From assembly GCA_016179105.1 (NCBI GenBank), contig JACOSB010000160.1, positions 164 through 64,163 of the forward strand: a DNA stretch of 64,000 bases, in the 5' to 3' direction. The notes beneath the pieces were generated by a model that was given only the letters and a program-made list of their open reading frames with translations, searched no databases and was not told the DNA's origin. This document shows positions 1 through 14,258 of the stretch, piece after piece (position 1 is the stretch's first letter; each line of letters opens with the position of its first letter). The stretch is from Candidatus Acetothermia bacterium (lineage in GTDB: Bacteria; Bipolaricaulota; Bipolaricaulia; RBG-16-55-9; DRXL01). The position numbers and the translations under genes were made by a program.

Positions 1-640
1 GAAGTTCAACGACCTGAACGGCAATGGCAAGCAGGACCCCGGCGAGCTCGGACTGCCTAACTGGATCTTCACAGTCCAACCAGGCAACCTTACCGGCATC
101 ACCAACCCTAAGGGGGAAATCTGCTTCACCGTGCCCGCTCCGGGGACGTACATAGTCACCGAGCAAGTGCAATCCGGGTGGATGCTGACGACGCCAAACC
201 CGCAAACGGTGACTGTCTTACCGGGCCAGACGGTGAACCTCAGCTTCGGGAATCGGCAAATCGGAAAGTGAGACCTGGCGATCATTAAGGAAGTCAAGCT
301 GATGATCAGCGGACAGCCAGCAACGTACGTCATTACCATCAGCAATAAAGGAGACGGAACCTGTAACCCCACAATCACGGTGACGGACATGTTGGGGTCG
401 GGCCTAAGCTTCAGCTCGGCAGGCGGGCCCGGGGTAGTGTGTGGAGCCGTTGCACAGACGGTCACCTGTACGAGCAATAACCCGCTCGGCCCCGGCCAGA
501 GCCTCCAGATCCAGATCAACGTCACTGTCAAGATTGATCCGGGGAAAGAAGCCAGGAACTGTGCCACTGTGAAGAATCCCAATGACGTCAATTTGACCAA
601 TAACGAAGCCTGTATCACGACCGTCGTAGGGAAAAAGTAA
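1..640 (+). pseudogene. Degenerate duplicate of the 3' end (DUF11-repeat C-terminus) of the 775..3849 surface-protein gene. It is interrupted by an in-frame TGA at 269-271 and a 6-nt deletion relative to the paralog.
   Basis: Frame-2 translation KFNDLNGNGKQDPGE...NRQIGK* parallels residues ~530-625 of the 1024-aa protein. Segment 302..640 (112 aa) is nearly identical at the nucleotide level to 3511..3849. The TGC codon of the paralog's GGKCDLAI is TGA here. Confidence 0.6.
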
Positions 641-653
641 AGGAGCAACGCAA

Positions 654-680
654 GGCGTCCGGGCCACGCGCCCGGACGCT
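654..680 (+). terminator. GC-rich hairpin 3' flank (GGCGTCCGGGC-cacgc-GCCCGGACGC), copy 1 of a conserved cassette 3' element. There is no U-tract.
   Basis: 10-bp perfect inverted repeat immediately after the stop of the duplicated gene fragment. Homologous elements follow the genes ending at 3849 and 6641. Confidence 0.45.
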
Positions 681-774
681 CGCCTTCGCAAACTATAGCC
701 GTAAATGCCCAACAGGAATTAGGAATATAGATGTCCAATAGGAATATAATGTTAAACAAGACAGGTGATCTACG

Positions 775-3700
775 ATGAAGTTCATCAAGCAGAACCCCGG
801 CCTGCTGAGGTCGGCGCGCAGCTGGGGAGCGCTGGGGTTGCTCCTGGCGCTCGTGGTGACGTTTGGGTCGTGGCAAGCTACTTCAATACCATCAACCTTC
901 ATTGTGGAAGGCACTGTGACTTACTCAGCGCAACCGCAACCTCCGACTCCTTGCGCTACACCCCCCTCTGGCATGGTCGCCTGGTATACGTTGGATGAGC
1001 AAAGTGGGGCTGGTGTTGTCTACGATGTAGCCGACTGGGACGATAACGGCAATACTTTGGATGCTAACGGCAGCACTACGACTATCAGCGCGACAGCGGG
1101 TCCTCCACCCGCAGGTCCTGTGCCCGTGACCTCACTTCCCTTAAGCTTACCGTCTGGCAAGGTCGGCAGTGCGCTCTATTTCTATGGGCCGTATGTGCAA
1201 GTGCCTCTGCCAGCAGCGGACTTGAACTTTGCGAAGGGCGATCTCAGCATAGACGCCTGGGTCTGGCCGGTCCAAGTCGGTCCAGGGCGCATTCAGCCTA
1301 TCGTGGATAGGCTCGACCTAAGCCAAAACAAGGGCTACGCCTTCTATGTGGAAGACGGCCTTCTGCGCTTCAGGATGGGGGACGGTACGTTTGCTGGGTC
1401 TGCGAGCACGGGAAGTGTCACCTATGGGACATGGAACCATGTAGCGGTCACAGTGAACAGAAGCGACCCCTTGAGCGGGGTTAAATTCTACATCAACGGG
1501 GCACTTGTCGGGTTCGGTCCGACAGTAACCGGGATCATTGACAATGCACAGGCTGTGTGGATCGGCAAGAGTAGGCTCAGCCCTCCAGCAGGCTTTGGTG
1601 AGATCGCCATTGACGAGCTGGAGGTCTTCAACCGTGTGCTCACACCAACGGAGATCAATGACATCTTCCAGGCCGACAAAGCGGGTAAGTGCAAATCCGA
1701 TCTGGGTGATGCACCGGATAGCACGAATCACGCCGCAGCGCAGATGGCTACTGGTTATGGGCCAACGGCCAACTTCCCCACGGTCTATGATCCGGGCGCG
1801 CCTCATGGTCCGATCCATCTGAATGCGACCGGCGATGCTTGGCTAGGGAAGGCTGTCACCTTAGAGGGAGAGGCCGATCAAGGATGGGACCAAGACCCGA
1901 CGAACAACATCCTACCTGGCCCCAACATCGCTAACAAGGATGGCGCAGACGACGGCGTGAGCCCGCTGCCCATTCTCCCTTTTTACTGCAGCACTCAGAC
2001 ACTCACCTATTCGGTAACCGTCATCGGCCCAACGAAACCCCGCTATGTGAACGTCTGGTTCGACTTCAAGCAGGATGGGGACTGGGATGATGTCATCCAA
2101 TGTCCAGGGACGCCACTATCTGCAAGAGAATGGGCTGTCCAGAACCACCTCATCAACTTAGGTCCCGGTTTTCACCCGGGTTTGGTGACGCCATCCTTTG
2201 TGGCCTTCCTAGACCCTAATAAGTCCATTTCGACGTGGATGCGGGTGACACTGACGGATGTGCCGGTCGCACCCGCACAGGCCGACGGCAGTGGCCCTCC
2301 TGGGGGATACCCGTTCGGTGAGACCGAGGACTACTTCTTGGGAAAGGACCCATCCGGTAGCGCCGAAATCTGCGTCTTCAAATTTGAAGACAAGAACGGG
2401 AATGGTATGTGGGACATTAACTTCAGCAACCCCAACGACCCCAACAACGAGCCTCTGCTATCTGGATGGACGTTTAACGTTAATCCAGGGCCCCCGAATC
2501 AGGTGACCACTGACCCTACAGGCAACATCTGTTTCAGTGTGCCCGCTCCGGGGACATACACGATCACGGAAGTGCCATTGCCCGGCTGGGTACCCACGTC
2601 GCTGAATCCGCAAACCCAGACGGTTTTCTCAACCACCCGCATGCACTTCTACTTCGGCAACCGGAGGCGAGAGGAAGTGAAGTGCGACCCGGCGATCAAG
2701 AAGACAGTTAACCCCAACCCCGTGCAAACCGGAGGGACGGTGACTGTCACGCTCGCCCTAACCGTGCCCGCAGGGCAAATCTGCGAAGCTACCACTGTTG
2801 TCGTGCAAGATCAATTGCCCCCCACGATGGTGTATCAGAACCTGTCGATGACTCCAAGCCCGCTTTCTGATTGGAGCTGTGTTACAACAATCCCGAGTTG
2901 TTACAATGTCATTCCACTGATAGGGCCTTACACAGCCATGTTCAGCTTCATGGCCAACGTGAACGCACCACCAGGAACTAGTATCACCAACTGCGCGACA
3001 GCAACCGTGTCAGGCCAGCTTATCAGTAAGTCATGCGTGCCTATCTCGGTCCTACCTAAAGCTGCCTGCGACCTGGCGATCAAGAAGTCCGTCACTCCCA
3101 ACCCCGTACAGAGCGGTCAACAGGTGACCTTTACCCTGACCGTGCAGAACGTCGGCACCGGACCGTGCCAAGGCATCACCACGGTGACGGATGGTCCACT
3201 CCCGTGGTTGCAGGTCACGAGCGTGGCGCAGGGCGGCAGCCAGTGGAATTGCTCGGTGGCGCCGCCAAATCCTGGAGCGACCATCAAGTGCACTTGGGAT
3301 GCCAGCATCCAGCCTGTACCGCCCGGGCCACTTCCCGCAATTACCATCACAGGGACTGTCATAGCATCGGCAACGGGTCAACTTCCAAACTGCGCGGCCG
3401 TCAGCAATCCGAACGACACCAACACGGCCAATAACCAGTCGTGCGTGATCGTGCAGGTCACAGGCGGAAAGTGCGACCTGGCGATCAGCAAGGAAGTCAA
3501 GCCGAATCCCTTAATCAGCGGACAGCCAGCAACGTACTTCATTACCGTCTTCAATAAGGGAGACGGAACCTGTAACCCCACAATCACGGTGACGGACACG
3601 TTGGCGTCGGGCCTAAGCTTCATCTCGGCAGGCGGGCCTGGGGTAGTGTGTGTACCGTTTGGACAGACGGTCACCTGCACGAGCAATAACCCGCTCGGCC

Positions 3701-3849
3701 CCGGCCAGAGCCTTCAGATCCAGATCAACGTCACGGTAAAGATTGAGCCGGGGAAAGAAGCGAGGAACTGTGCCACGGTGAAGAATCCGAACGATGTTAA
3801 CTTGACCAATAACGAAGCCTGTATTACGACCGTCGTAGGGAAAAAGTAA
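775..3849 (+). CDS. Secreted surface protein with a signal peptide, a LamG_3 / concanavalin-A-like jellyroll domain, a GEVED-like motif (PFGETEDYFLG) and about 3 DUF11 conserved-repeat domains.
   Basis: 1024-aa ORF with RBS AGGTGA 7 nt upstream. N-terminus MKFIKQNPGLLRSARSWGALGLLLALVV is signal-peptide-like. LamG_3 hallmarks: YFYGPYVQVP...DAWVWP...LLRFRMGDG...WNHVAVT...FYINGALVG...IDELEVFNRVLT. DUF11-like repeats: CDLAIKKSVTPNPVQSGQ..TFTLTVQNVGTGPC. Confidence 0.85.
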   Translation: MKFIKQNPGLLRSARSWGALGLLLALVVTFGSWQATSIPSTFIVEGTVTYSAQPQPPTPCATPPSGMVAWYTLDEQSGAGVVYDVADWDDNGNTLDANGSTTTISATAGPPPAGPVPVTSLPLSLPSGKVGSALYFYGPYVQVPLPAADLNFAKGDLSIDAWVWPVQVGPGRIQPIVDRLDLSQNKGYAFYVEDGLLRFRMGDGTFAGSASTGSVTYGTWNHVAVTVNRSDPLSGVKFYINGALVGFGPTVTGIIDNAQAVWIGKSRLSPPAGFGEIAIDELEVFNRVLTPTEINDIFQADKAGKCKSDLGDAPDSTNHAAAQMATGYGPTANFPTVYDPGAPHGPIHLNATGDAWLGKAVTLEGEADQGWDQDPTNNILPGPNIANKDGADDGVSPLPILPFYCSTQTLTYSVTVIGPTKPRYVNVWFDFKQDGDWDDVIQCPGTPLSAREWAVQNHLINLGPGFHPGLVTPSFVAFLDPNKSISTWMRVTLTDVPVAPAQADGSGPPGGYPFGETEDYFLGKDPSGSAEICVFKFEDKNGNGMWDINFSNPNDPNNEPLLSGWTFNVNPGPPNQVTTDPTGNICFSVPAPGTYTITEVPLPGWVPTSLNPQTQTVFSTTRMHFYFGNRRREEVKCDPAIKKTVNPNPVQTGGTVTVTLALTVPAGQICEATTVVVQDQLPPTMVYQNLSMTPSPLSDWSCVTTIPSCYNVIPLIGPYTAMFSFMANVNAPPGTSITNCATATVSGQLISKSCVPISVLPKAACDLAIKKSVTPNPVQSGQQVTFTLTVQNVGTGPCQGITTVTDGPLPWLQVTSVAQGGSQWNCSVAPPNPGATIKCTWDASIQPVPPGPLPAITITGTVIASATGQLPNCAAVSNPNDTNTANNQSCVIVQVTGGKCDLAISKEVKPNPLISGQPATYFITVFNKGDGTCNPTITVTDTLASGLSFISAGGPGVVCVPFGQTVTCTSNNPLGPGQSLQIQINVTVKIEPGKEARNCATVKNPNDVNLTNNEACITTVVGKK

Positions 3850-3861
3850 AGGAGCAACGCA

Positions 3862-3891
3862 GGGCGTCCGGGCCAACGCTCTCGGGCGCCC
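3862..3891 (+). terminator. GC-rich hairpin 3' flank (GGGCGTCCG...CGGGCGCCC), copy 2. It is followed by a second hairpin, CTCCTCG...CGAGGAG, in the convergent intergenic zone.
   Basis: Inverted repeats directly after the stop at 3849. The sequence taaaggagcaacgcagggcgtccgggcc matches the copy at 641-665. Confidence 0.45.
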
Positions 3892-3928
3892 TCCTCGGCT
3901 CTATCGGAGGACGAGGAGAAACTTCATC

Positions 3929-4192
3929 TCAAGCGGGCAGTGGCACTTCCTCCTGCTGCATTACCAACGAAGCGTAGTAGAGGGCGGCTTGGATGTCTTC
4001 TTCGGTCAGGGGAGGATATTCTTCAATGATCTCCCGATGGGTCATGCCGGCGGCCAGGGCGTCTAAGATGACGAAGACCGGAATGCGCGTGCCTTTGATA
4101 CAGGGCTTGCCGTGGCAGATCTGCGGGTCAACGGAGATACGCTCCAGAAGGTTGCTTGATTGCTGGTGTTTCATGGCGTTCACCCAGAGCAA
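3929..4192 (-). CDS. DUF433 family protein. This is antitoxin-like and usually pairs with DUF5615, but it is solitary here.
   Basis: 87-aa ORF with a family-typical HTH-like core (GKPCIKGTRIPVFVILDALAAGMTHREIIEEYP). No DUF5615 partner ORF is adjacent. Confidence 0.6.
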   Translation of the reverse strand: MLWVNAMKHQQSSNLLERISVDPQICHGKPCIKGTRIPVFVILDALAAGMTHREIIEEYPPLTEEDIQAALYYASLVMQQEEVPLPA

Positions 4193-4265
4193 TTTTAGAG
4201 CAAGTTGGCTACTGAAGCAAGCTCACGGGAGTATAGTAGTGCTGAAACGAACAGATCCACAAGAA

Positions 4266-4356
4266 GGGATCGAGAATGAAGTTCATCAAGAAGCATGCCG
4301 GCCTGTGGAGGTCGATGCGGAGTTGGGGAGCAGCTCGGGCGCCCTGCTTTTTATGA
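4266..4356 (+). pseudogene. Orphan remnant of the shared RBS plus signal-peptide 5' module (MKFIKKHAGLWRSMRSWGAA...), fused directly to a sequence resembling the cassette 3' hairpin half.
   Basis: ATG at 4276. The first ~20 codons are about 80% identical at the nucleotide level to the 5' ends of the genes at 775 and 6195. Homology breaks after GGGGAGC and continues as CTCGGGCGCCCTGC, which resembles the 3' flank at 3880-3893 and 6702-6712. Stop falls after 26 codons. Confidence 0.45.
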
Positions 4357-4788
4357 ATGCTTTTGCGCAAATAAGCGCTGGGGATCAACACGCTTGATCT
4401 CTGGAATGAGGTCCAAGTGTGCATCCGTCGAAATGATCTCGTGCAACTCGTTGTGGCGCATCACCGCCACATGAATCAGATCTCTTGCCGTAACCCCTTT
4501 GGGAGCATAGCGCTCAAAGAGCTGAACAGCCAGCCGGATGTCGGCCACCGCGATCGGATAGATCGTGGGCACCAGGTCCAGTAGGCTCTTGGCCATACTC
4601 GTCCCGATCGGCCAGCGACCGAGAGCGCCGTAGCGATACAAGATCTCTTGAATAATCTCGACATCTATGGCGGCGGCAAGCCGTCCCTCGGCGATCTCGG
4701 CCATAATCCAGGTACAAGGTGCTTTATAGAGATGTGCTTTGCCGGCGGCGTACATGGGCACGTTGACATCGAGAAAGAACTCAGCCAT
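4351..4788 (-). CDS. vapC: Type II toxin VapC (PIN-domain ribonuclease)
   Basis: 145 aa. N-terminal FLDVNVPMYAAG has the PIN acidic motif. It overlaps the upstream RHH antitoxin by 8 nt (ATGATGCC). Confidence 0.8.
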   Translation of the reverse strand: MAEFFLDVNVPMYAAGKAHLYKAPCTWIMAEIAEGRLAAAIDVEIIQEILYRYGALGRWPIGTSMAKSLLDLVPTIYPIAVADIRLAVQLFERYAPKGVTARDLIHVAVMRHNELHEIISTDAHLDLIPEIKRVDPQRLFAQKHS

Positions 4789-5062
4789 CTAAGGCACCTT
4801 TGGTAATTTCTTTTTCCATTTCTTCCCAGTCTGCCACCGGGGCTTTCAAACTGAGCAACTGTTGGAGGGCGGCCCGGCGCTGCTGCAGCACGGCCCCTTG
4901 GAAGCACGCCTCCACGATGGCCTCGCGGACGAGCACGCTGAGCGGTTTGCCGCGCTCTTGGGCGATCTTCAGAAGAAGTTCATACTGTTCTGTGCTGAGC
5001 ACGGTTTGGACGCGCTTGGTATAGACAGGGCTTGTGGCGTGTGTGGCGGCCAATGGCATCAC
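4781..5062 (-). CDS. vapB: Ribbon-helix-helix antitoxin (VapB/CopG-like), partner of vapC
   Basis: 93 aa. Shows the ...LSTEQYELLLKIAQERGKPLSVLVREAIVE... RHH signature and is translationally coupled to vapC. A palindromic candidate operator, GATAGTATC...GATACTAT, lies at 5066-5100 upstream. Confidence 0.75.
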   Translation of the reverse strand: MMPLAATHATSPVYTKRVQTVLSTEQYELLLKIAQERGKPLSVLVREAIVEACFQGAVLQQRRAALQQLLSLKAPVADWEEMEKEITKGALDG

Positions 5063-5179
5063 CTCAAGATAGTATCTTACAGATCGTATTTTAATGATAC
5101 TATATCCATAGTGCTGTTGCCACGGTGCCAGCGGGTGCGGGATGACTTTTTTAGCCCACCTCTTTGCTATTGTGAACGA

Positions 5180-5297
5180 TTAAGGATGAATGACGTGTGA
5201 GTTGAGTTCCTGCTTGAACAGGTCGAAATCGCGGTCATTGTGAAGCAGGGCATGATGGTGCAAATGAAAAAAGACGGTGGTGTCGACAAATCACCAT
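5180..5297 (-). pseudogene. Degraded vapC (PIN toxin) remnant downstream of the second vapB. It has a +1 frameshift after codon 3 and an internal deletion.
   Basis: ATG GTG ATT then an extra T. Removing it gives MVIVDTTVFFHLHHHALLHNDRDFDLFKQELNSHVIHP*. This shows the PIN N-terminal VDT motif and the C-terminal NDRDF motif, but only about 36 codons remain. Confidence 0.35.
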
Positions 5298-5300
5298 AGC

Positions 5301-5501
5301 TTAGCGGGCGCGGCCATCGCGCAGTTTCTCGAGATCGCCTTCCCAGGCGACCTTGCCACGCAAGCGGCGGACCTCGCTCTGCCCTTTCACCTGCACCAAC
5401 AACTGTAGAGCAGCTTCAATGACGGCGCGTTTGGTGGGCAGGCCGCTGGCGCGCAGGGCTTGGCGCATCAACTCATCGTCAATCACGACATTAGTGCGCA
5501 T
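5301..5501 (-). CDS. vapB: Type II antitoxin, VapB family (DUF2191-like, MRTNVVIDDELM N-terminus)
   Basis: 66 aa. The N-terminus MRTNVVIDDELMRQALRASG is characteristic of VapB-family antitoxins that pair with PIN toxins. The cognate toxin downstream is decayed. Confidence 0.7.
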   Translation of the reverse strand: MRTNVVIDDELMRQALRASGLPTKRAVIEAALQLLVQVKGQSEVRRLRGKVAWEGDLEKLRDGRAR

Positions 5502-5751
5502 GGGTGAGCACTCCTAAGAGTTTCGATGTGTATAGTATAGCAAAATCGTGTGTATTGGGCAATGGTCTTAGCTGGGCTCTTCTCGGTTTTTCCGGTTCCC
5601 ATGATATTTTGTTTCGCCACGCTATCGTCACGCGGGAAGTTTATACAAGGTTGTTAGACTCGCCTCCTTTTGGGCCATAGATAAGAGCGAAGTTCAGAGT
5701 CGCAGCTGAAGCACACGACAGAAGCAGCCACACAAAGAAAGAAAGGAGACG

Positions 5752-5964
5752 ATGACGATGAAATGGATACACCTCAAGAGCAAACACTGGATCGGGTCGG
5801 CGACGGTGATGATTCCTCAGGGAATGGCGGTGTGGCAGTTCAAGCAGCTGGTCGGTCTCCAGGAAGACAGCATTTTGACAGTGCCTGCGTTGGCGTTTCC
5901 TCTGCCAGATCAAGTGGTCCTGGACAAATATATCACGAATTTCGACACGGTCTATGTCGAGTAA
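5752..5964 (+). CDS. Small hypothetical protein (70 aa) in an AT-rich pocket
   Basis: Strong RBS GAAAGGAG 7-10 nt before ATG. No recognisable motif. It is flanked by imperfect direct repeats GGGCCATAGA...GAAGT at 5672 and 5973. Confidence 0.35.
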   Translation: MTMKWIHLKSKHWIGSATVMIPQGMAVWQFKQLVGLQEDSILTVPALAFPLPDQVVLDKYITNFDTVYVE

Positions 5965-6194
5965 TGCTGTTGGGGCCATAGACCGAAGTGAAACTCAATC
6001 ACCTTGAAGGAGGGTATCTTATGAAACTTTAGAAAGTATTCCCAATCGAAATCGAGCAATTACGCAGATTTGAAGCTCATTTCACGTTTTTGTCACGCTG
6101 GGGATTTAGACTAAAAGTGACCGACGGGTAGTCTTCCGGGCGGTTCAACGAAGTCAAAGCGAACGAACAGATCCAATAAAAGGAGAGATCTACG

Positions 6195-6641
6195 ATGAAG
6201 TTCATCCAGAAGAACGCCGGCCTGCTGAGGTCGGTGCGGAGTTGGGGAGTGCTGGGATTGGTCCTAGCGCTCGCGGTTGTCGCTAGTGTCTATGAACAGA
6301 CAGTAGCTCTTCCATATCCAGCAAACACTGTCAAGCTCTGGGAAGCAGCTTTGCCCCCATATACATATACTTTGCCCTCAAATAAATGTAATCTTGTCGC
6401 GCTGGTTGCCTATGATAACGGCATAACAATTGACCCGCGTTCAAACTATCTTGTGAAGTTCTATCAGATGCCCGGACATGTATATCAAGGCCAGTCTTTA
6501 AGCGGCACGAACGGTGAAGCCAACTTCTCTGTTCTACGCGGCGGTACTGTAGTCACTTTCTTCGTGGCGGAGGTTCAGTCGTGGATTGGGCTCCTCGTAA
6601 GCAACCAGATTGCTTGCGGAGCCCGTTATCCTGGAGACTGA
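6195..6641 (+). CDS. Small secreted protein (148 aa) carrying the shared signal-peptide 5' module
   Basis: MKFIQKNAGLLRSVRSWGVLGLVLALAVV is nearly identical to the N-terminus of the 775 gene. 20 nt of upstream sequence (gatctacgatgaagttcatc) are identical. It is followed by the conserved GC hairpin at 6685-6712. Confidence 0.7.
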   Translation: MKFIQKNAGLLRSVRSWGVLGLVLALAVVASVYEQTVALPYPANTVKLWEAALPPYTYTLPSNKCNLVALVAYDNGITIDPRSNYLVKFYQMPGHVYQGQSLSGTNGEANFSVLRGGTVVTFFVAEVQSWIGLLVSNQIACGARYPGD

Positions 6642-6684
6642 GAAGCAAATCAACGACAAAGTTTGACGCAGTAGGTCAAGGGAT

Positions 6685-6712
6685 GGGCGTCCGGGCCGCG
6701 CGCTCGGGCGCC
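6685..6712 (+). terminator. GC-rich hairpin 3' flank, copy 3 (GGGCGTCCGGGCC gcg CGCTCGGGCGCC)
   Basis: Same element as at 654 and 3862. It lies between the stop at 6641 and the RBS-supported start at 6788. Confidence 0.4.
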
Positions 6713-6787
6713 CCGCCCCACAGCATCACGGACGCAAAGACTGATCAGGAAACTGAAGAATCTGTACAATGGCTAGGAGAGATCGCA

Positions 6788-8563
6788 ATGCACATAAGAG
6801 AAGCAATGAAGCTACTCGGATTGGTCGCAGCCTTGGTCGTGTTGATCTTGGTTGTGATACAGAGCGAACAGGCCTGGTTGGCGCAAGCCGACTGCACGAT
6901 CATAGTACAGCCGGGGCAGTCTATCCAAAAGGTGATTGACCAAGCTCAAGCGGGCGCGGTCGTCTGTCTGAGCCCAGGAACGTTCCAAGAGAATATTCAG
7001 ATCAAAAAGAGCCTGACGCTGCGGGGCGCGGGAAGAATGCAAGCGGTCATCAAGGGCAAAGTAGAAAAGGGTCAGCGCGAGCCGGGTCCGCCCGGGGTGC
7101 AGATGACTGAGCCCGTGGTTCGGATCGAGAGCGCTTCAGAGATCGAAGTGAACATCAAGGGCCTCACGATCGCGGAGGCCGAATTCTACGGGCCCCCCCC
7201 AGTGACTTGTGACTTTGTTCCTTGTTTTTACGCACTTCGTATCCCGCCTAGTATCTCGGTGGGAGGCCATGCGAAAGCGACAATCCGATCCTCCACCGTC
7301 TCCCGCAGCGGGAGCGGTCTAGCTGTAGGAAACTCGGCTCAGGTGAGCCTGATTGACTCCCAAGTCTCCGACAACAGCGGGAGCGGCATCAGTGTGACAG
7401 GCTCTTCCGGCGATGCGAAAGTGACGATCCAATCTTCCATAGTTTCGGGCAATGGGGTTGGCCTCGATGTGCAGGACTCGGCTAAGTTGGAGGTGAATGA
7501 CAGCCGCTTCTTGGACAACCGGCAGTGCGGAATCAGGGTTCTCTCAGCCGATGCCCGGATTTCGGGCACTCCCAACGAGATGCGGGATAACGGGGTCGAT
7601 CTTTGCGGCTTCGCCCCCGTGGCCCTCCGCCGGCCGCTCGTCCCCCAGACGACGCGCACTCAACTGACAGTCCCCCAGGATTTTGCCAGCCTGCAGGAGG
7701 CAGTGGATGCCCTGGCCCCGGGCGGGACGATCTTGGTTGGGCTAGGCATCTATGAAGTGGGGCTGACGATCTGGAAACCGCTGACGCTGTGGGGGGTGAG
7801 CCGGACAGAAACGACGCTGAAGGTACGGCCTGAGCGTGGGTTGGTCGTCTCGGTCCCGGCCGAGGTGCAGGTAGTTACGCTGCAAGGACTTGCAGTGTTG
7901 GGCGGTGGTTTGAACATCTACGGTTATGTCTATCTTCAGGACGTCCAAGTCTCCGGCAATAGGGGCAGTGGCCTCTTTGTGGGGGGATCGGCCCAGGTGA
8001 GCCTGACCGGCTCCCAAGTCTCCACCAACGTCGGGTCAGGCCTCTCTGTGGAGGGCTCGGCCCAGGTGAGCCTGATTTACTCCCAAGTCTCCACCAATGT
8101 CGGGTCAGGCCTCTCTGTGGGAGGATCTGCCCGGGTGAGTCTGAGTGGCTCCACAATCTTCGGCAACACACAAGGCCTCGTGATGGAGGACTCGGCCCGT
8201 GCAGAAGTACGTCAAAGCCTCATCATAGGCAACGGCACTAACCCCGAGATGCAGCTTGTCGACGATTGTCAAGCCGGCAACCCCCGCAGAAAGGCAGACA
8301 TAATGTGCGGCGGGATCGTGGTTGGTGGCACAGAAGCGCGACTGACGCTGATAGGTTCCATTATCCAAGGGAACGCCGACTGGGGCCTGGGGGCGGAGTT
8401 GAAGCAGTGCGGCGGCTCCGAAGACAAGTTCACCGGCAAGGTGGTCTTCGAGGGTACGAACACGATCGAGGGCAACAACAGATCGGGCAAACTCATTGGC
8501 AAGGGCAACCCCGGCAACCACCCGTTCAAGAACTTACCCGACGGGCAGGTGTGTCTGCCGTAG
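6788..8563 (+). CDS. Secreted right-handed parallel beta-helix repeat protein (PbH1 / NosD / pectate-lyase-like fold)
   Basis: RBS AGGAGAGATCGCA-ATG. Signal/TM segment MHIREAMKLLGLVAALVVLILVVI. There are many 22-23-aa rungs of the form GNSAQVSLIDSQVSDNSGSGISVTGSSG. The upstream in-frame extension to 6581 was rejected. Confidence 0.75.
   Translation: MHIREAMKLLGLVAALVVLILVVIQSEQAWLAQADCTIIVQPGQSIQKVIDQAQAGAVVCLSPGTFQENIQIKKSLTLRGAGRMQAVIKGKVEKGQREPGPPGVQMTEPVVRIESASEIEVNIKGLTIAEAEFYGPPPVTCDFVPCFYALRIPPSISVGGHAKATIRSSTVSRSGSGLAVGNSAQVSLIDSQVSDNSGSGISVTGSSGDAKVTIQSSIVSGNGVGLDVQDSAKLEVNDSRFLDNRQCGIRVLSADARISGTPNEMRDNGVDLCGFAPVALRRPLVPQTTRTQLTVPQDFASLQEAVDALAPGGTILVGLGIYEVGLTIWKPLTLWGVSRTETTLKVRPERGLVVSVPAEVQVVTLQGLAVLGGGLNIYGYVYLQDVQVSGNRGSGLFVGGSAQVSLTGSQVSTNVGSGLSVEGSAQVSLIYSQVSTNVGSGLSVGGSARVSLSGSTIFGNTQGLVMEDSARAEVRQSLIIGNGTNPEMQLVDDCQAGNPRRKADIMCGGIVVGGTEARLTLIGSIIQGNADWGLGAELKQCGGSEDKFTGKVVFEGTNTIEGNNRSGKLIGKGNPGNHPFKNLPDGQVCLP
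7922..8190 (+). repeat. Tandem 69-nt (23-aa) repeat, about 3.5 units, inside the beta-helix gene
   Basis: gcccaggtgagcctga...gtcgggtcaggcctctctgtgg recurs at 7991, 8060 and 8129 with over 85% identity. Confidence 0.8.
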
Positions 8564-8679
8564 GAGCTACAAAATATGGAGGGAGAAACGGTGCACTCGG
8601 GTGCCCCGACGGACTCATCCCCATGACGCGAATTGACAAGTTTGAGCAGAAACAGATAGACTTCGAAAGGAGGTCTTCG

Positions 8680-10479
8680 ATGCGTACCAAACTGTCACTC
8701 CTGGTTATCGCTCTGATTTTTTATTTGTTCAGTGCAGGGGCAGCACAACCGGCTCTTTCCCCTTGCCCGCCCGCTCCAGCGCGCACCTTATTGCCCGGCG
8801 GTAGCGGTGAAGGGCAACAGTCCACGTCATTTTTGCAGCTCACGATTCAGCAGAAAGCCAAGGGGCTTGGTCCCTGTCGCGTCGGCCAAGAGCTGACGCT
8901 GAACGCCGTCGTTGCCTCTCTCGGAGCGATTGACCCGGATCAAGTACAATTTCTCATCGACGGTGCCCCCTTTCGCAACAGGCGCTTCACCTCCAGAGGA
9001 CCAGTTTCCACGGTCGGCCCACAACTCTTGGGTATTCAAGACAGCTGGACCGCAACGCCTTCCGAAAACATCAGCCATGAGATCAGCGCTTGTTTGAGCC
9101 TAAGCCCAAACCCTCCTCCTCTGTGCAGCACTTCTACGATTGATGTGCTTCGCATTGAGCTAAGAGAGGGAGTGGACTTCGCTCCCGGCATACTCTTGGT
9201 CAAGTTCAAACCGGGCGTAAGCTCCGGGGCGATTCAAGAGACGATCCGCCGTCTCAACACAACTCAAATCAGCTTCATCGCGTTCATTGAAGTTTATGTT
9301 TTGAGAATCACAGATGCCCAATCAGTGCTGCAGAAAATAGACGCCTTTCGGCGTGACTCAAACGTCCAGTACGCAGAACCCGACGGTTATTGGTATGCCC
9401 AGCAACAAATACCCAATGACCCGCAATTTTCAAAACAATGGAACCTTCGCAATCTCCCGACAGAGCATCCCTGCACTCGCAACGACATCACCGACGTTTT
9501 GTGGAATACGTTCTCACCACCCTTTCTCGACTGCAATCAGAAGGGCAAAGAGAAAGCCGACATCAGAGCCATGGACTTATGGGGACAATTTTCTAATAAC
9601 CAATTTAGCCAGGCGGTCACTGCAGCCGTCCTCGACAGCGGCATCGCCATACACCCGGACTTGGAAGCAAACGTCATCCGCACAGAGTCCAAAATTTTTA
9701 TAGACCCAAAGCTCAACGCTCCTGAAGACCAAGACACCAATATTTATGACACTTATGGGCATGGAACGTTTGTCGCGAGCATCATGGCCGCGTTGGGGAA
9801 CAACGGTCTCGGTCTCACGGGAATACTTTTTAATACCAAAGCCAAAGTCTGGCCTCTCAAAGTGAGCAAGAGTGGAAAACTCTTGTGGACTGACTTCGCT
9901 AATGCGATCGCCTACGTGCTCACACAAAAGACCCCAGCGAACATTCGCGTGATCAATCTCAGCTATGGCGGCATGAGGTCTGAGAGCTTGAGTAATGCCC
10001 TGGATCGTGTGAAAGAAGCCGGTTTACTCTTCATCACTTCTGCGGGAAACTATAAGCAAGACCTCGATCAAAAACCCTTTTACCCGTGCAGTTACGAGCG
10101 CGAGAATAAGAACGAGAATATCCTCTGCGTCGCCGCTTCGGACGATAAAGATCAACTATGGAGCGAATCCAGTTTTGGAGCTAAATCTGTCGATTTGGTT
10201 GCTCCTGGAGTAGACATCTTGGGGCTAATTCCCGAGGGATTGTCCTTGCCCGCGGGACGAAAATCGGCAGATTCTTCTTCGATCTTCGTGGGCAGCGGGA
10301 CTTCCTTTGCGGCCCCCCATGTGACGGCCGTCGTCGCTAGTCTGTGGGCGCGTTGCCCCACGGCGAGCGCGACGGTCATCCGGCGTATCCTGCTCGATGG
10401 AGTGGAGAAGCTTCATTTGCAGGCGCAAGTCGCCAGCGGAGGCCGCCTGCGCTGGCCGGAGAAAGTGAGCTGTAACTAG
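8680..10479 (+). CDS. Secreted subtilisin-like serine protease (peptidase S8) with an I9-like propeptide
   Basis: RBS AGGAGG then ATG. Signal peptide MRTKLSLLVIALIFYLFSAGAA. Catalytic-triad motifs are AVLDSGI (Asp), HGTFVASIMAA (His) and GTSFAAPHVTAVVASL (Ser). The in-frame extension to 8266 was rejected. Confidence 0.85.
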   Translation: MRTKLSLLVIALIFYLFSAGAAQPALSPCPPAPARTLLPGGSGEGQQSTSFLQLTIQQKAKGLGPCRVGQELTLNAVVASLGAIDPDQVQFLIDGAPFRNRRFTSRGPVSTVGPQLLGIQDSWTATPSENISHEISACLSLSPNPPPLCSTSTIDVLRIELREGVDFAPGILLVKFKPGVSSGAIQETIRRLNTTQISFIAFIEVYVLRITDAQSVLQKIDAFRRDSNVQYAEPDGYWYAQQQIPNDPQFSKQWNLRNLPTEHPCTRNDITDVLWNTFSPPFLDCNQKGKEKADIRAMDLWGQFSNNQFSQAVTAAVLDSGIAIHPDLEANVIRTESKIFIDPKLNAPEDQDTNIYDTYGHGTFVASIMAALGNNGLGLTGILFNTKAKVWPLKVSKSGKLLWTDFANAIAYVLTQKTPANIRVINLSYGGMRSESLSNALDRVKEAGLLFITSAGNYKQDLDQKPFYPCSYERENKNENILCVAASDDKDQLWSESSFGAKSVDLVAPGVDILGLIPEGLSLPAGRKSADSSSIFVGSGTSFAAPHVTAVVASLWARCPTASATVIRRILLDGVEKLHLQAQVASGGRLRWPEKVSCN

Positions 10480-10532
10480 TAGGGGCAGACCTACGTGTCT
10501 GCCCAAGGGCGAACACAAAGGTTCGCCCCTAC
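10479..10532 (+). repeat. Palindromic element, family A copy 1 (outer stem GTAGGGGC...GCCCCTAC with two inner hairpins)
   Basis: GTAGGGGCAGACCTACGTGTCTGCCCAAGGGCGAACACAAAGGTTCGCCCCTAC. It overlaps the TAG stop of the protease gene. Confidence 0.75.
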
Positions 10533-10564
10533 TCTGGTTTGTGAATTTGAGAAAGTGATCTCCC

Positions 10565-11464
10565 ATGCAATTACTCGAACAAGCGGCCCACTCCGGATGG
10601 ACGGCTGAGCTCAAAGAGAAATTTGTACATGCCTACGACCGACAGATCGGGCGATCGGTCTTAACTCTCTTGGCGCAGTATGGGCTCATCTCTAGCGCGC
10701 GAGAACTTAGCCTCTTGCGGCAGCATATAGAGTTGCGATTGGAGGGCAAGGCCAAAGCCAGCTCGAGCGAGCGGGTGGATCTTTTATGTGACGTCTACGT
10801 GAAAACCTATCACGAAGTCTTTCAAGAGCGCTTTGTGAAACGCTGGCTTTCTCAAGATCATGCTGCCGAGAGTTCTTTTGAACGCTATCTGCACGGCCTC
10901 ATCCGACACCAATTCTTCGCGGCCTTGGGCAAAGAAGATCTTTCCGAGAAAGAGCTCTTGGACCGGATCGTCCAGAGCAAGCGCGCCGAGACAAAAGAAA
11001 CCCATTTGCGGGAGGCCAAGTCGCGTCTCTGGGAGCGCGCAAGAGCCGCTCTGCTCTGTGTATCCACTCACGAGCTAGTACACCACCACGATGTTTTTGT
11101 AGGGGCAACCCCCCGTGGTTGCCCTCAAACTGGGCAGGCACAGGGGCCTGCCCCTACCATGAATAATCAACATAGTCGAGTACTGGAGCCTCAAGAAGCC
11201 CATCAGTTAGCAACCCAGGTTGATCGCCACATAGACGCGATCACGCACTATTTTTTCGAATGCTTCCTGCCCGAGCGTTATCCCCAGTTGATGGTGACCG
11301 CTCACGGCTCAAGCTTCGAGCGTTTGCTGGAATCTTTCCGTCAAGAACACTATCGACCGGGAAAGCTGAGCGATGAGATTCTCAACTACCGAGGGCGTTT
11401 GTCGCGTCGCCCGCCAGTGCGTCTCGTGGCCGGAGTTGAAGAAGATGAAGGAGATGACCAATAA
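10565..11464 (+). CDS. Hypothetical protein, 299 aa, with a possible divergent sigma-70/ECF-like N-terminal half. An in-frame palindromic-element insertion sits at codons ~179-198, so it may be a fusion of two genes.
   Basis: A region-4-like segment THLREAKSRLWERARAAL resembles the ECF sigma 4.2 motif. Family A palindrome 11099-11157 lies inside the ORF, encoding VGATPRGCPQTGQAQGPAPT. A TAG in the +1 frame at 11076-11078 sits about 20 nt before the palindrome, as stop codons do at the other copies. Confidence 0.4.
   Translation: MQLLEQAAHSGWTAELKEKFVHAYDRQIGRSVLTLLAQYGLISSARELSLLRQHIELRLEGKAKASSSERVDLLCDVYVKTYHEVFQERFVKRWLSQDHAAESSFERYLHGLIRHQFFAALGKEDLSEKELLDRIVQSKRAETKETHLREAKSRLWERARAALLCVSTHELVHHHDVFVGATPRGCPQTGQAQGPAPTMNNQHSRVLEPQEAHQLATQVDRHIDAITHYFFECFLPERYPQLMVTAHGSSFERLLESFRQEHYRPGKLSDEILNYRGRLSRRPPVRLVAGVEEDEGDDQ
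11099..11157 (+). repeat. Palindromic element, family A copy 2, located inside an ORF
   Basis: GTAGGGGCAACCCCCCGTGGTTGCCCTCAAACTGGGCAGGCACAGGGGCCTGCCCCTAC has the same architecture as copy 1: an outer 8-bp stem plus two inner hairpins. Confidence 0.75.
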
Positions 11465-11473
11465 TGAGGGACT

Positions 11474-11890
11474 ATGGACGACTGGGCACGCGAGTTGCGC
11501 TTGATCGTGTGGGATGGACTCTTGCGAGGCAACCCACCGAACGCGAACGACTCCGAACAGTTACAGAAACTCTGGGCTGCGCGCGAGACGCTGGGCGAAT
11601 CGAGCCGACAGGCACTACGCCTCTGTTTGGCTTGTCTCGCGTTGGCACAGGACGCATCGCCGGCGCTCCGCGAAGAGCTACGAATTTTTATAGCGTACTA
11701 TTTGAGTCGCGACGGCAGCGCTCCTATCAAGAGCCTGCCCGAGCCTCAATCTTCCCAAGAGTTGACTCTCGAGCGCTTGCGTGGACGCGAGATGAGCTGG
11801 GAGCAGATTTTTCAAATCTTTGGGCGCACGGCCAATCCCGATCGCGTGCGAAAACTCTTGCACGAGCAGCTCGATCGCGTGGGGGCGTGA
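11474..11890 (+). CDS. Hypothetical protein (138 aa)
   Basis: ORF sits 10 nt after the preceding stop, with no recognisable motif. It is probably co-transcribed with the flanking genes. Confidence 0.45.
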   Translation: MDDWARELRLIVWDGLLRGNPPNANDSEQLQKLWAARETLGESSRQALRLCLACLALAQDASPALREELRIFIAYYLSRDGSAPIKSLPEPQSSQELTLERLRGREMSWEQIFQIFGRTANPDRVRKLLHEQLDRVGA

Positions 11891-11896
11891 TTAAAA

Positions 11897-12409
11897 ATGT
11901 CCTCTGAAGATATTTTCGAGCAGAGTTTGCGTGGGGAACTGCGTGAGATCGCTCACTCCAGTCACCCTTCCTTCGCGATGCTTTTCAGCCACGCCCAACA
12001 GAATCTAGAAGCATCTCAACAGGGTTCACTCATGGCGCATGTGGTGAGTTGCGCGCGCTGTCAACGCGAGCTACAGACAATTCGGGAGGAACTGACTGTC
12101 TTGGATCAGGCGCTGCCCCAGTTTCTTCGCCAGAGCATGGAAGAGAAACCCAGTCCAGTGATACGGGAGACCAACCTCTGGCAAAGATGGTGGCAAAGTA
12201 TTCGTGCTCATCCATTTTTCTATGTTCATGTGAGCACCTACGCAGCAGCGGCGGCTGTGCTGATCGCTTTCAACCGAAGCCAGATGTGTTTCCCAACTCC
12301 ATCGATCGGGTGTCCGCAAAGTTCGGTGTCTTGGTGGGTCCAGTGGTTTTTAGTGCCGTGGGGGTTATTGCTTGCGGCACATATTTGGAAAACCTTCAAG
12401 AATCGTTAA
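11897..12409 (+). CDS. Putative anti-sigma factor with a zf-HC2-type zinc finger and a C-terminal transmembrane segment
   Basis: HVVSCARCQRELQ (H-x3-C-x2-C) resembles zf-HC2 of ChrR/RsrA-like anti-sigmas. Hydrophobic stretches FFYVHVSTYAAAAAVLIAF and WFLVPWGLLLAAHIW are present. A terminator hairpin GCCTTCTGAATGTCCGAAGGC follows the stop. Confidence 0.45.
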   Translation: MSSEDIFEQSLRGELREIAHSSHPSFAMLFSHAQQNLEASQQGSLMAHVVSCARCQRELQTIREELTVLDQALPQFLRQSMEEKPSPVIRETNLWQRWWQSIRAHPFFYVHVSTYAAAAAVLIAFNRSQMCFPTPSIGCPQSSVSWWVQWFLVPWGLLLAAHIWKTFKNR

Positions 12410-13127: not shown

Positions 13128-14258
13128 TCAAAAATCCATACGAATGGGCATGCAGACGTACAGAAAGCCGCGATCGTCTTCGCTGTCGCTCGGCTCGAGC
13201 AGACCGGCGCTCTCGGCATCGGCCAGCCAGAGGGTCACTTCATCAGACTTCACGCGCTTGAGTGCATCGATCAGATACTCGGCTCGGAACGAAATTTTCA
13301 CTTCGCTGATCTTCTTCTTGAGTTCAAGCGTCTCTTGCGCCTCACCCTTCTCGGCCGCTTGCGAGCTAAGCTGCAGCTTCGTGCCCGACGCGTTCAGAAT
13401 CACGGCATCGGACTCTTCGGCCGCTGTAATCTGCGCGCGCTGGAGCGCATTCAAAAAAACTTGGCGATCGAGCAGCAGTCCAATCGTGTTGTCACGTGGG
13501 ACTACTTTATCAAAGTCAGGATACTCTTCATCAATCAGCCGGGCGACAAAAACGACCGGACCCGACTTAAAGAAGAGATAATTGTCGGACTGATATAATT
13601 CTACTTGCTCGGCTTTGAGCTGCGAGAGAATGCTCGCGAGGTCTCGCAGCGAATCGGCAGCAGCGAGAAATTCTCCCTCGACGTTCGCCGCGCTCTCCAA
13701 CTTTTCTTCTTTAAGTGCGAGCCGATAACCGTTCGTCGCGACCATCTTGAGCGAATTTTTCTCTAAGACTAAGTCGACGCCCGTGAGACTCAAACGGGAT
13801 GTGTCGCGCGCCATGTGCGCCGAGAATGTCGTCAATTCCAGGGCACGCTCGAGCTGAGGCTTCGCGAGCTGACAGATGCGTTTACCCGGCAGGGTAGGGA
13901 TTTCGGGATAGTCTTCTTTAGGCAGCATGAAGAGATCGAAGGTCGCGCCGCCGCAGACGATCTCGACTTTGCCGGTGCCCTTGACGATCTTCATCGTCAA
14001 TTTATCGGCGGGAAGGGTGTTAGCGATTTTTGAAAGCAATTCGCCGTTCAGGACGACGACTTCGTCGCCGCCCGAATTCTCGATCGGGACCGAGCACCAG
14101 ATCGCTCGCTCCAAGTCGGTCGCGTACAGATTCAATTGATTGCCTTGAGTTTCTAGCTTGATGCCGGTAAGAATCGGCATGCTGGTGGCACGTCCCAGAG
14201 CACGACCAGCGACCTTGACTCCGAAAACCATCTCATCTCGGCCGCAAGAGAATTCCAT
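13128..14258 (-). CDS. dnaN: DNA polymerase III beta subunit (sliding clamp)
   Basis: 376 aa with ...NQLNLYATDLE..., ...VCMPIRMDF C-terminus and three-domain length. Confidence 0.9.
   Translation of the reverse strand: MEFSCGRDEMVFGVKVAGRALGRATSMPILTGIKLETQGNQLNLYATDLERAIWCSVPIENSGGDEVVVLNGELLSKIANTLPADKLTMKIVKGTGKVEIVCGGATFDLFMLPKEDYPEIPTLPGKRICQLAKPQLERALELTTFSAHMARDTSRLSLTGVDLVLEKNSLKMVATNGYRLALKEEKLESAANVEGEFLAAADSLRDLASILSQLKAEQVELYQSDNYLFFKSGPVVFVARLIDEEYPDFDKVVPRDNTIGLLLDRQVFLNALQRAQITAAEESDAVILNASGTKLQLSSQAAEKGEAQETLELKKKISEVKISFRAEYLIDALKRVKSDEVTLWLADAESAGLLEPSDSEDDRGFLYVCMPIRMDF

Follow-up and report, generated by a model that had tools for sequence, protein, structure and literature searches.

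The 64-kb window analysed here, by which we mean the whole stretch of DNA, belongs to a metagenome-assembled genome (MAG) held at NCBI under the label Candidatus Acetothermia, and it carries at its start an array of secreted-protein genes that open with the same leader and are followed by the same GC-rich stem-loop, hereafter HP1. We regard it as fairly probable that this locus represents a lineage-specific format for secreted-protein genes, laid out in arrays that are remodelled by recombination. A unit of this kind would consist of a conserved 5' untranslated region (UTR) box with a strong Shine-Dalgarno sequence, a ~30-codon leader acting as Sec-type signal peptide or anchor and bearing an mRNA hairpin over codons 8-14, an unrelated extracellular cargo, and HP1 placed 13-62 nt past the stop codon.

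Leader, cargo and 3' hairpin in the window and its relatives

A repeat search of the window recovered a 91-nt block at 767-857 that recurs at 6187-6277 with 88% identity and, in decayed form, at 4268-4358 with 64% identity. This bears out the near-identical 5' module that the first-pass annotation of this DNA had placed at genes 775 and 6195 and at an orphan remnant at 4276. A 40-nt degenerate pattern of the module matches solely 775 and 6195 in the 64 kb, with 0 matches expected. The identity was also said to begin 20 nt ahead of the ATG, which did not hold, as upstream of 775 and 6195 only about 8 nt (GATCTACG) are contiguously identical. The long 5' box conserved among the other internal leaders (a class described below) is missing from the 3-kb gene starting at 775, and the box preceding 6195 matches that of L017_8001 without a difference for more than 30 nt. 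Here and below, L001 to L022 denote loci from other metagenomes or MAGs, and w with a number denotes the window copy at that coordinate.

The 12-mer GGCGTCCGGGCC, which forms the 5' arm of HP1, occurs in the window only at 654, 3863 and 6686, against 0.27 expected occurrences. The genes ending at 640, 3849 and 6641 are each followed by the same hairpin, as had been claimed, with HP1 starting at 654, 3862 and 6685. Across all loci HP1 is a stem-loop of about 27-30 nt with a stem of 11-12 bp, found 13-62 nt after stop codons. The 10-mer CTCGGGCGCC is confined in the window to HP1 copies 2 and 3 and to the decayed cassette at 4246-4345 (w4276), whose best matches are the 5' modules of w6195 and L017. 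A second hairpin, unrelated to HP1, lies directly after copy 2 at 3892-3917.

The domains proposed earlier were recovered by hidden Markov model searches, namely Laminin_G_3, GEVED and three DUF11 domains in the 3-kb gene product, none in the 148-aa protein, and Beta_helix/NosD and Peptidase_S8 in the two genes that come after it. Orthologues of the 3-kb gene in L008, L011, L012 and L014 share 36-41% identity with it, and those of the 148-aa protein in L003 and L016 share about 31% in the mature part. The cargo of the latter may be an all-beta Ig/Fn3-like sandwich, an assignment of low to moderate confidence; the fold search returned weak generic Ig/Fn3 matches only, and the model has a predicted local distance difference test score (pLDDT) of 64. 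Because ordinary signal peptides are found on the beta-helix and S8 proteins encoded next to it, the leader sets apart a separate class of predicted exported proteins.

Table 1. Coordinates of the array features and neighbouring genes in the window
Feature	Position	Strand	Details
Adhesin-like upstream paralogue, 3' end (SdrD_B/Cna-B-like)	1..271	+	In-frame translation; HYR54_16990, partial
DUF11 segment copied from the last repeat of the 3-kb gene (3465-3849)	262..640	+	Pfam DUF11 E=3.8e-12
HP1 copy 1	654..680	+	11-bp GC-rich stem, 5-nt loop; 14 nt after stop; -27 kcal/mol including extended stem
Direct repeat AGGAATATA at 721-729 and 740-748, TATAAT at 745-750	721..750	+	Read from sequence
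5' module of the 3-kb gene: GATCTACG, ATG, 32-codon leader MKFIKQNPGLLRSARSWGALGLLLALVVTFGS	767..870	+	Leader mRNA hairpin at 795-816
Leader-bearing adhesin-like protein, 1024 aa (3-kb gene)	775..3849	+	Pfam/NCBIfam: Laminin_G_3, GEVED, SdrD_B-like segment, 3x DUF11
HP1 copy 2	3862..3891	+	11-bp stem, 8-nt loop; 13 nt after stop
DUF433 (antitoxin-like) orphan between HP1 copy 2 and next 5' module	3929..4192	-	Pfam DUF433 E=3.5e-27
Decayed 'empty' cassette	4246..4345	+	5' box 4246-4275; leader codons 1 to about 18, 4276-4332; HP1 3' arm CTCGGGCGCCCT 4334-4345
Type II toxin-antitoxin pair, intact	4351..5062	-	PIN toxin 4351-4788; ribbon-helix-helix (RHH) antitoxin 4781-5062; weak Pfam PIN and RHH_5 matches
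Decayed VapBC	5183..5501	-	VapB 5301-5501 (Pfam E=2.6e-13); VapC remnant 5183-5290, internally deleted (FVDTTVFF...LLHNDRDFDL)
5' module of the 148-aa gene: box GAACGAACAGATCCAATAAAAGGAGAGATCTACG (6161-6194) and leader MKFIQKNAGLLRSVRSWGVLGLVLALAVVASV	6161..6290	+	Leader mRNA hairpin at 6215-6236
Leader-bearing 148-aa protein HYR54_17030	6195..6641	+	No Pfam family
HP1 copy 3	6685..6713	+	12-bp stem, 5-nt loop; 44 nt after stop
Right-handed beta-helix protein (Beta_helix/NosD)	6788..8563	+	Pfam; ordinary signal peptide
Subtilisin, Peptidase_S8 with fervidolysin N-pro domain	8680..10479	+	Pfam; ordinary signal peptide

Further leader loci came from protein searches, from an exhaustive phmmer run and from locus searches with degenerate patterns, which together gave ~15 non-redundant loci from different metagenomes, one of which (L006) belongs to a Candidatus Fraserbacteria MAG. 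Scanning GTDB genomes with an exact DNA pattern of the 5' module returned no match, the pattern being too strict (L005 differs by one synonymous base), and a word-indexed search with the leader alignment returned two fragments only. Because the exhaustive phmmer run retrieved only 17 of 1.84 billion cluster representatives at E <= 1e-3, the leader family is rare and narrowly distributed. The leader comprises about 30 residues with the consensus M[KT]F[IV].K[NQ].GLL[RK]S.R[SN]WG.LGL.LAL.. and heads proteins of 61-1503 aa. The modular architecture proposed from the window, shared 5' and 3' modules around unrelated cargo, proved to be real, with at least 10 unrelated extracellular cargos behind the leader in the ~15 loci, such as LamG/SdrD/GEVED/DUF11 adhesins, a Peptidase_S74 tail-fibre-like protein, a beta-helix protein and several small all-beta proteins. 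Outside four small orthologue families, BLASTP shows no relationship among the mature parts, and orthologous cargos are 31-60% identical between genomes. Searches of Pfam and NCBIfam gave no N-terminal match to the leader proteins, or to the leader alone, at E up to 1, and the YSIRK, ESPR and Tat models were unmatched.

Leader and HP1 occur together. Counting HP1 as present when it lies within 85 nt of a stop codon, over 195 kb of non-redundant sequence, it follows 14 of 19 leader open reading frames (ORFs) versus 2 of 184 other ORFs (Fisher p ~1e-15), and one of these two is a leader gene whose start was mis-called. In four independently fetched loci, the rule was kept by all five leader genes with a readable stop. 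The first-pass annotation had allowed for a hairpin of the ubiquitous repetitive extragenic palindromic (REP) type, present after most genes. HP1 was found only inside arrays in the 195 kb, which include the 57 kb of the window outside the array as well as the non-array flanks, and for this reason it does not appear to be a ubiquitous REP. Leader genes that lack HP1 end in a different palindrome (in L008 together with the spacer that normally precedes a second hairpin, HP2) or in a classic terminator. After some adhesin genes the place of HP1 is taken by another palindrome, CCCCTCTCCCCTCTGAGGGAGAGGGG(TC)GGGGTGAGGGG, seen in L001 at about 13290-13325, after the adhesin stops in L008 and L011, and in L016 at about 8660-8700.

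In tandem units HP1 is followed within ~40-75 nt by the conserved box (...CCAGAACGAACAGATCCAATAAAAGGAG.GATCTACG) and then by the next leader, a junction that is kept in L001, L003, L006, L017 and L021. Two leader classes can be distinguished, 'first-in-array' leaders (MTFITKQ..., after CATCACCACAGGAGGGTGATTCAG) and 'internal' leaders (MKFIKQN..., after HP1 and box), and the three window copies are of the internal class. Because the units are co-oriented in tandem and the spacing from HP1 to the next start can be only about 40 nt, the arrays are most likely operons.

Conservation of the leader peptide and of the hairpins

The leader of w6195 and that of its L003 orthologue show about 9 synonymous differences in 32 codons and, because such differences accumulate between genomes, the primary constraint is placed on the leader peptide. 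A basic n-region (K2, K5/6, R12, R15) and an h-region (WG.LGL.LAL.V) are present in all leader copies, the c-region is variable, and an AlphaFold2 model has residues 8-35 as one helix. These features are best read as those of a specialised signal peptide or anchor of the Sec type, whose conserved basic n-region is unusually long. Prepilin leader, lipoprotein and ribosomally synthesised and post-translationally modified peptide (RiPP) leader readings were rejected, there being by eye no G/FTLIE motif and no lipobox, and the cargos being large folded extracellular domains.

The leader resembles the YSIRK-G/S signal peptides of Gram-positive cocci and the ESPR of autotransporters, in which a conserved motif likewise sits in a lengthened n-region before an ordinary hydrophobic core and is common to many unrelated surface or secreted proteins of one lineage, beside ordinary signal peptides. 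It differs from them in its motif, GLL[RK]S.R[SN]WG, for which Pfam and NCBIfam hold no match, and the definitions of YSIRK and ESPR include neither a 5' UTR box nor an in-frame mRNA hairpin nor a 3' hairpin, whereas all three are present here. Like the arrays described here, the erp and mlp genes of Borrelia and the vlp and vsa genes of Mycoplasma are clustered and have a conserved 5' UTR and signal peptide, with mature regions that are unrelated or highly divergent. Compared from general knowledge, the present arrays differ in that they have neither a lipobox nor a homopolymer or invertible switch and show no plasmid context, and their conservation spans genomes with 31-60% identical orthologous cargos and includes the 3' hairpin.

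Codons 8-14 of the leader form an mRNA hairpin, 5'-CGCCGGCYU/NCUG/ARGUCGGYG-3' (helix 1, 7-9 bp), which is under RNA-level constraint. Among the 26 leader copies of the covariation set, pair 33-48 is C-G in 22 and U-A in 4, and it joins the third positions of Ala-8 and Ser-13, so that both changes are synonymous; pair 37-44 is C-G in 19 and U-A in 6, and the two pairs have zero unpaired cells. The covariation score of helix 1 is 0.213 against 0.163 +/- 0.012 in shuffles that ignore relatedness (0/500 reach it), and slid partners score at most 0.099. Single-sequence folds of the hairpin give z of about -3 (for w6195, -16 kcal/mol and z = -3.0). A long-range pairing suggested by RNAalifold between CCCCAA, 3' of HP1, and UUGGGG in the Ser-Trp-Gly codons was discarded, as it has no covariation and is missing upstream of w6195. 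A search of Rfam 15 with window positions 1-12000 and with L006, L014, L019 and L022 gave no relevant match at E <= 1 to HP1, the 5' box or the leader hairpin.

The stem of HP1 has G.U at pair 17-28 in 13 of 14 sequences and is therefore specific to the sense strand. At array ends in L006, L014, L019 and L022 it forms part of a composite of ~100 nt, made up of HP1, the spacer CAACGAAATCACGGACGGATCGGCG and HP2 (GGGGCCGGGCG...CGCTCGGCCCC), and in L006c, L006d and L022 a T-run (GGCTTTTT) follows; the tails are T-poor in L006b, L001, L014 and L019. These composites lie at 6677-6790, 7498-7610 and 8490-8600 in L006, 4436-4540 in L014, 1067-1165 in L019 and 1001-1100 in L022. The window has a degenerate form at 6685-6735, in which HP1 copy 3 is followed by a degenerate copy (CATCACGGACG) of the spacer that precedes HP2 in other genomes, and HP2 is absent from the window. 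The composite is built like a 3'-UTR-derived small RNA, with a 5' stem-loop, a single-stranded stretch and a terminator. The one HP1 match in a scan of viral contigs was dismissed as chance, since it falls within a coding region of a high-GC contig and has no leader or box.

HP1 and HP2 look like REP elements and bacterial interspersed mosaic elements (BIMEs) in being short, imperfect, GC-rich intergenic palindromes 3' of genes and in forming composite units. Such elements, of which the malE-malF REP of E. coli is an example, likewise follow stop codons, HP1 with HP2 resembles a BIME, and a role in 3'-end protection and polarity within operons is plausible for both. HP1 differs from them in being array-restricted in the 195 kb and in keeping its sequence across genomes, with no REP-associated tyrosine transposase (RAYT) in view. 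We suggest that HP1, in the sense RNA, would either protect 3' ends between cistrons or terminate transcription in part, and that HP1 together with HP2 and a U-run would serve as the terminal terminator.

Array variability and competing readings

Comparison of synteny with relatives, as proposed in the first-pass annotation, revealed array content that differs at a conserved chromosomal site. L001, L006, L011 and L014 share flanks, with a BTAD/AAA/TPR regulator, two small secreted proteins, the S8 protease and a three-gene sigma/anti-sigma-like group on one side and His_Phos and pyrimidine genes on the other. Between these flanks, L014 has one adhesin with HP1 and HP2, L011 an adhesin and a ParE/Phd toxin-antitoxin (TA) pair, and L001 a remnant, HP1 and an adhesin. 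In L006 a pair of small leader genes comes first, and behind it stand two modules that have no leader and run in the opposite direction, with HP1 and HP2 bounding each of them. Leader-only remnants are three in number (w4276, L001r and L017c), with breakpoints at codons of about 18, 28 and 21, respectively. L001r is an L015-type cassette from which about 474 nt of the cargo are missing, and 171 nt on the 3' side match that type at 100% identity; w4276 goes from the leader straight into the HP1 3' arm.

The upstream end of the window also bears on how these arrays change. Bases 1-268 are in-frame SdrD_B/Cna-B-like coding sequence, 76% identical to 2508-2570 of the 3-kb gene; hence the window opens within a paralogous gene and not, as had been supposed, with a free-standing decayed fragment. 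Two DUF11 repeats present in the 3-kb gene are missing from this paralogous adhesin gene, whose N-terminus is off the contig; the contig begins 54 codons ahead of the window. The decayed 3' duplicate itself is present, together with the TGC to TGA change and the 6-nt deletion ascribed to it. The paralogue terminates at TGA 269-271, and this codon is genuine, because the same change occurs in L005, an independently assembled contig with 99.7% identity, and the deposited 143-aa partial protein at NCBI ends there. Downstream of the TGA, the DUF11 duplicate has lost 6 nt near 302 and keeps a residual ORF over 302-640, and it differs from the 3-kb gene by 14 synonymous versus 11 non-synonymous codons over 112 codons. 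Compared in 40-nt blocks, the duplicate at 262-680 is 85-98% identical to 3465-3890, and its edges, near 262 and 680, are sharp, a pattern that fits gene conversion or a recent segmental duplication. Leaders of the same genome on different cargo have a p-distance of 0.14 versus 0.18 for leaders of orthologous cargo across genomes, with 8 of 9 triplets in agreement, and both HP1 copies of L021 share a private loop sequence. Leader distances, the L021 loop and the 3' duplicate together suggest some gene conversion, of which the signal is modest.

Three TA systems had been described inside the locus, and one of them stands. The RHH/PIN pair is the only one of the three with both genes of a type II module adjacent and intact, VapBC has decayed, and the DUF433 gene is an orphan for which no partner was present among the window ORFs around 3929-4192. 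The PIN and RHH genes overlap by 8 nt, and short overlaps of this kind are typical of TA operons. An analogous pair of PIN and FitA-type RHH genes lies directly 3' of an HP1 in L002, and L011 has a PIN with a similar N-terminal sequence located elsewhere.

The first-pass annotation had read the sharing of ends as the signature of cassette exchange or gene conversion and drawn an analogy with antigenic and phase variation loci, in which case the modules would be recombination substrates for swapping cargos at an expression site. Unrelated cargo between shared ends, variable arrays at a conserved site, three leader-only remnants, weak within-genome homogenisation and a serine recombinase 4 kb from the L017 array agree with such a process, as does the sharp-edged 3' segment, which conversion or duplication does fit, homogenisation being slight. 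Programmed exchange is nevertheless unsupported, and we hold it to be very unlikely. Each copy, the remnants included, carries its own ribosome-binding site (RBS) or Shine-Dalgarno box, ATG and leader, and silent 5'-truncated donors are missing; the remnant breakpoints differ, and the one remnant that was traced, that of L001, is a plain internal deletion. No invertase, integrase or recombinase is consistently adjacent, there are no attC-type core sites, and the junctions showed neither inverted-repeat switches nor homopolymer tracts, so that the analogy with antigenic or phase variation is not sustained. The leader is moreover kept at peptide and RNA level despite synonymous drift and, because peptide and RNA helix are retained while synonymous changes accumulate, functional constraint explains most of its conservation.

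Integron-like capture would explain the arrays differently, with HP1, or the ~100-nt HP1-spacer-HP2 composite, as an attC-like folded site at which a recombinase inserts cassettes including TA modules. The likeness to chromosomal integron arrays and to clusters of attC sites lacking integrases (CALINs) extends to tandem units split by palindromes, variable content at a fixed site and interspersed TA modules, which are typical of chromosomal integrons; the strand-specific stem, the TA modules directly beside hairpins in the window, L002 and L011, and the opposite-orientation non-leader modules of L006, each bounded by HP1 and HP2, would also agree. We nevertheless find this reading highly improbable, as GTTRRRY is present within -60/+90 nt of 0 of 15 HP1 copies and RYYYAAC is sporadic at inconsistent offsets, HP1 measures about 30 nt where attC sites have at least about 57 nt (range 57-141 nt), and no tyrosine integrase was seen among the called genes in flanks of up to 10 kb (L001, L006, L011, L016, L017 and L021). 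The cassettes here have their own RBS and a common leader, and most copies of HP1 simply mark where a leader gene ends. The remaining explanation combines ordinary paralogy with a generic REP, the leader being the signal peptide of recent paralogues and HP1 a common palindrome. It accords with the REP/BIME look of HP1 and HP2, with the other REP-like palindromes at these loci (GTAGGGGCAG... at 10479 and 11131; CCCCTCTCCCC...GGGAGAGGGG in L001, L008, L011 and L016) and with the clear duplication of adhesin paralogues. Against it, and in line with the earlier statement that this is not ordinary paralogy, the cargos are unrelated rather than diverged paralogues, HP1 is restricted to arrays in the 195 kb, missing from the rest of the window and from all non-array flanks, and leader and HP1 are paired in over 12 genomes or samples between which orthologous cargos are only 31-60% identical. 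This explanation is thus unlikely.

We therefore return to a lineage-specific format with arrays remodelled by recombination. The shared modules would be kept by selection on peptide and RNA structure, to which within-genome homogenisation by gene conversion would add, and the same homologous modules would double as substrates for ordinary recombination, so that a tandem paralogue with a converted 3' end, cargo-deleted remnants and differing arrays would result. Selfish TA modules would accumulate beside the hairpins. Several points weigh against this reading. Export and cleavage of the leader are predictions; the covariation of helix 1 probably rests on few independent events, 2-3 per pair, with the relatedness of the copies ignored by the shuffle; and HP1, which pairs in 93.5% of cells, is nearly invariant in sequence and its covariation uninformative. 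HP1 is no canonical intrinsic terminator, since no U-tract follows the window copies and the terminator scan called none there. Five of the 19 leader ORFs lack HP1 (one of these five is a false leader call), and three HP1 copies are not behind a leader gene (L006 7498 and 8490; L016 9894). The apparent restriction of HP1 to arrays draws on 195 kb of loci with no complete genome among them, and the signal of concerted evolution is small, at 2-5 nt per 55.

If this reading is true, a candidate phylum that has no member in culture would have a dedicated, recognisable format for some of its secreted proteins, and the leader motif would offer a practical way of finding that secretome in metagenomes. 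The system would combine a motif-bearing signal peptide with REP-like operon hairpins, the unexpected feature being a covarying mRNA hairpin in signal-peptide codons, which bears on the long-debated question of RNA-level information in signal-sequence codons. The arrays would further illustrate that a locus can become hypervariable and prone to recombination through the functional modules that its genes share, with no dedicated recombinase. It can also be speculated, as a quite unlikely extension, that 5' box, signal-peptide hairpin and HP1, with or without HP2, form an RNA 'address label' for secretome mRNAs of Fraserbacteria/'Acetothermia' that doubles as an integrase-independent scaffold for cassette capture. 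Such a label could serve to localise mRNAs, to pace translation for export or to recruit a shared RNA-binding regulator.

Neighbouring genes and minor elements

BTAD/AAA/TPR regulators (SARP- or MalT-like), or a TPR protein in L021, stand beside the arrays in most loci with enough flank, at 727-3909 in L001, 267-3449 in L006, 1-1224 in L011, 4585-7551 (-) in L016, 3037-6426 (-) in L017 and 3116-4387 in L021, and they are candidate regulators of array transcription. Just upstream of the regulator region of L006, at 39-113 (-), there is a sequence that matches the c-di-GMP-I-GGC riboswitch aptamer with 57.4 bits (E=2e-11), just below the gathering score of 59. The serine recombinase of L017, and of L017 only, is a 210-aa ORF at 2299-2931 (-) with the N-terminal motif YVRVSTKGQ, ~4 kb upstream of the array.

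The subtilisin is conserved beside the arrays in L001 and L011, and next to it lies a group of three genes (window 10565-12409; L001 7783-9455; L011 5828 to about 7500) that encode a 252-299-aa protein, a ~140-aa protein with a C-terminus like sigma-70 region 4, and a CxxC-containing 2TM protein (Pfam 2TM). The group resembles a split extracytoplasmic function (ECF) sigma/anti-sigma module and might regulate the array. A second REP-like palindrome (GTAGGGGCAGRCC...TGCCC) is found in the window as an inverted pair at 10479-10505 and 11131-11157. The copy at 11131 falls within ORF 10565-11464, in a stretch of ~47 aa (GATPRGCPQTGQAQGPAPT) that is missing from the 252-aa orthologues of L001 and L011, and looks like a palindromic element inserted in frame in a coding region.

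Ahead of the 3-kb gene, the direct repeat AGGAATATA has two copies 19 nt apart, and the second overlaps a TATAAT hexamer that precedes the start codon at 775 by 25 nt. This segment is possibly a promoter/operator of its own, specific to the 3-kb gene; the consensus promoter scan made no call at 721-750. Contig L005 (JACPZN010000218.1) is 2.46 kb long, matches window 177-2637 and was deposited, by the groundwater study that also yielded the window, in a MAG under the label Nitrospirae. With the window MAG labelled Acetothermia and its closest array relatives Fraserbacteria, the three labels point to a binning or taxonomy-label conflict. Lastly, the beta-helix gene has internal repeats with a period of 69 nt at 7309-8131 (e.g., 7963, 8032 and 8101), which encode successive turns of G-S-x-V-S-L-x-x-S-Q-V-S-x-N-x-G-S-G-L, as is ordinary for PbH1-type proteins.

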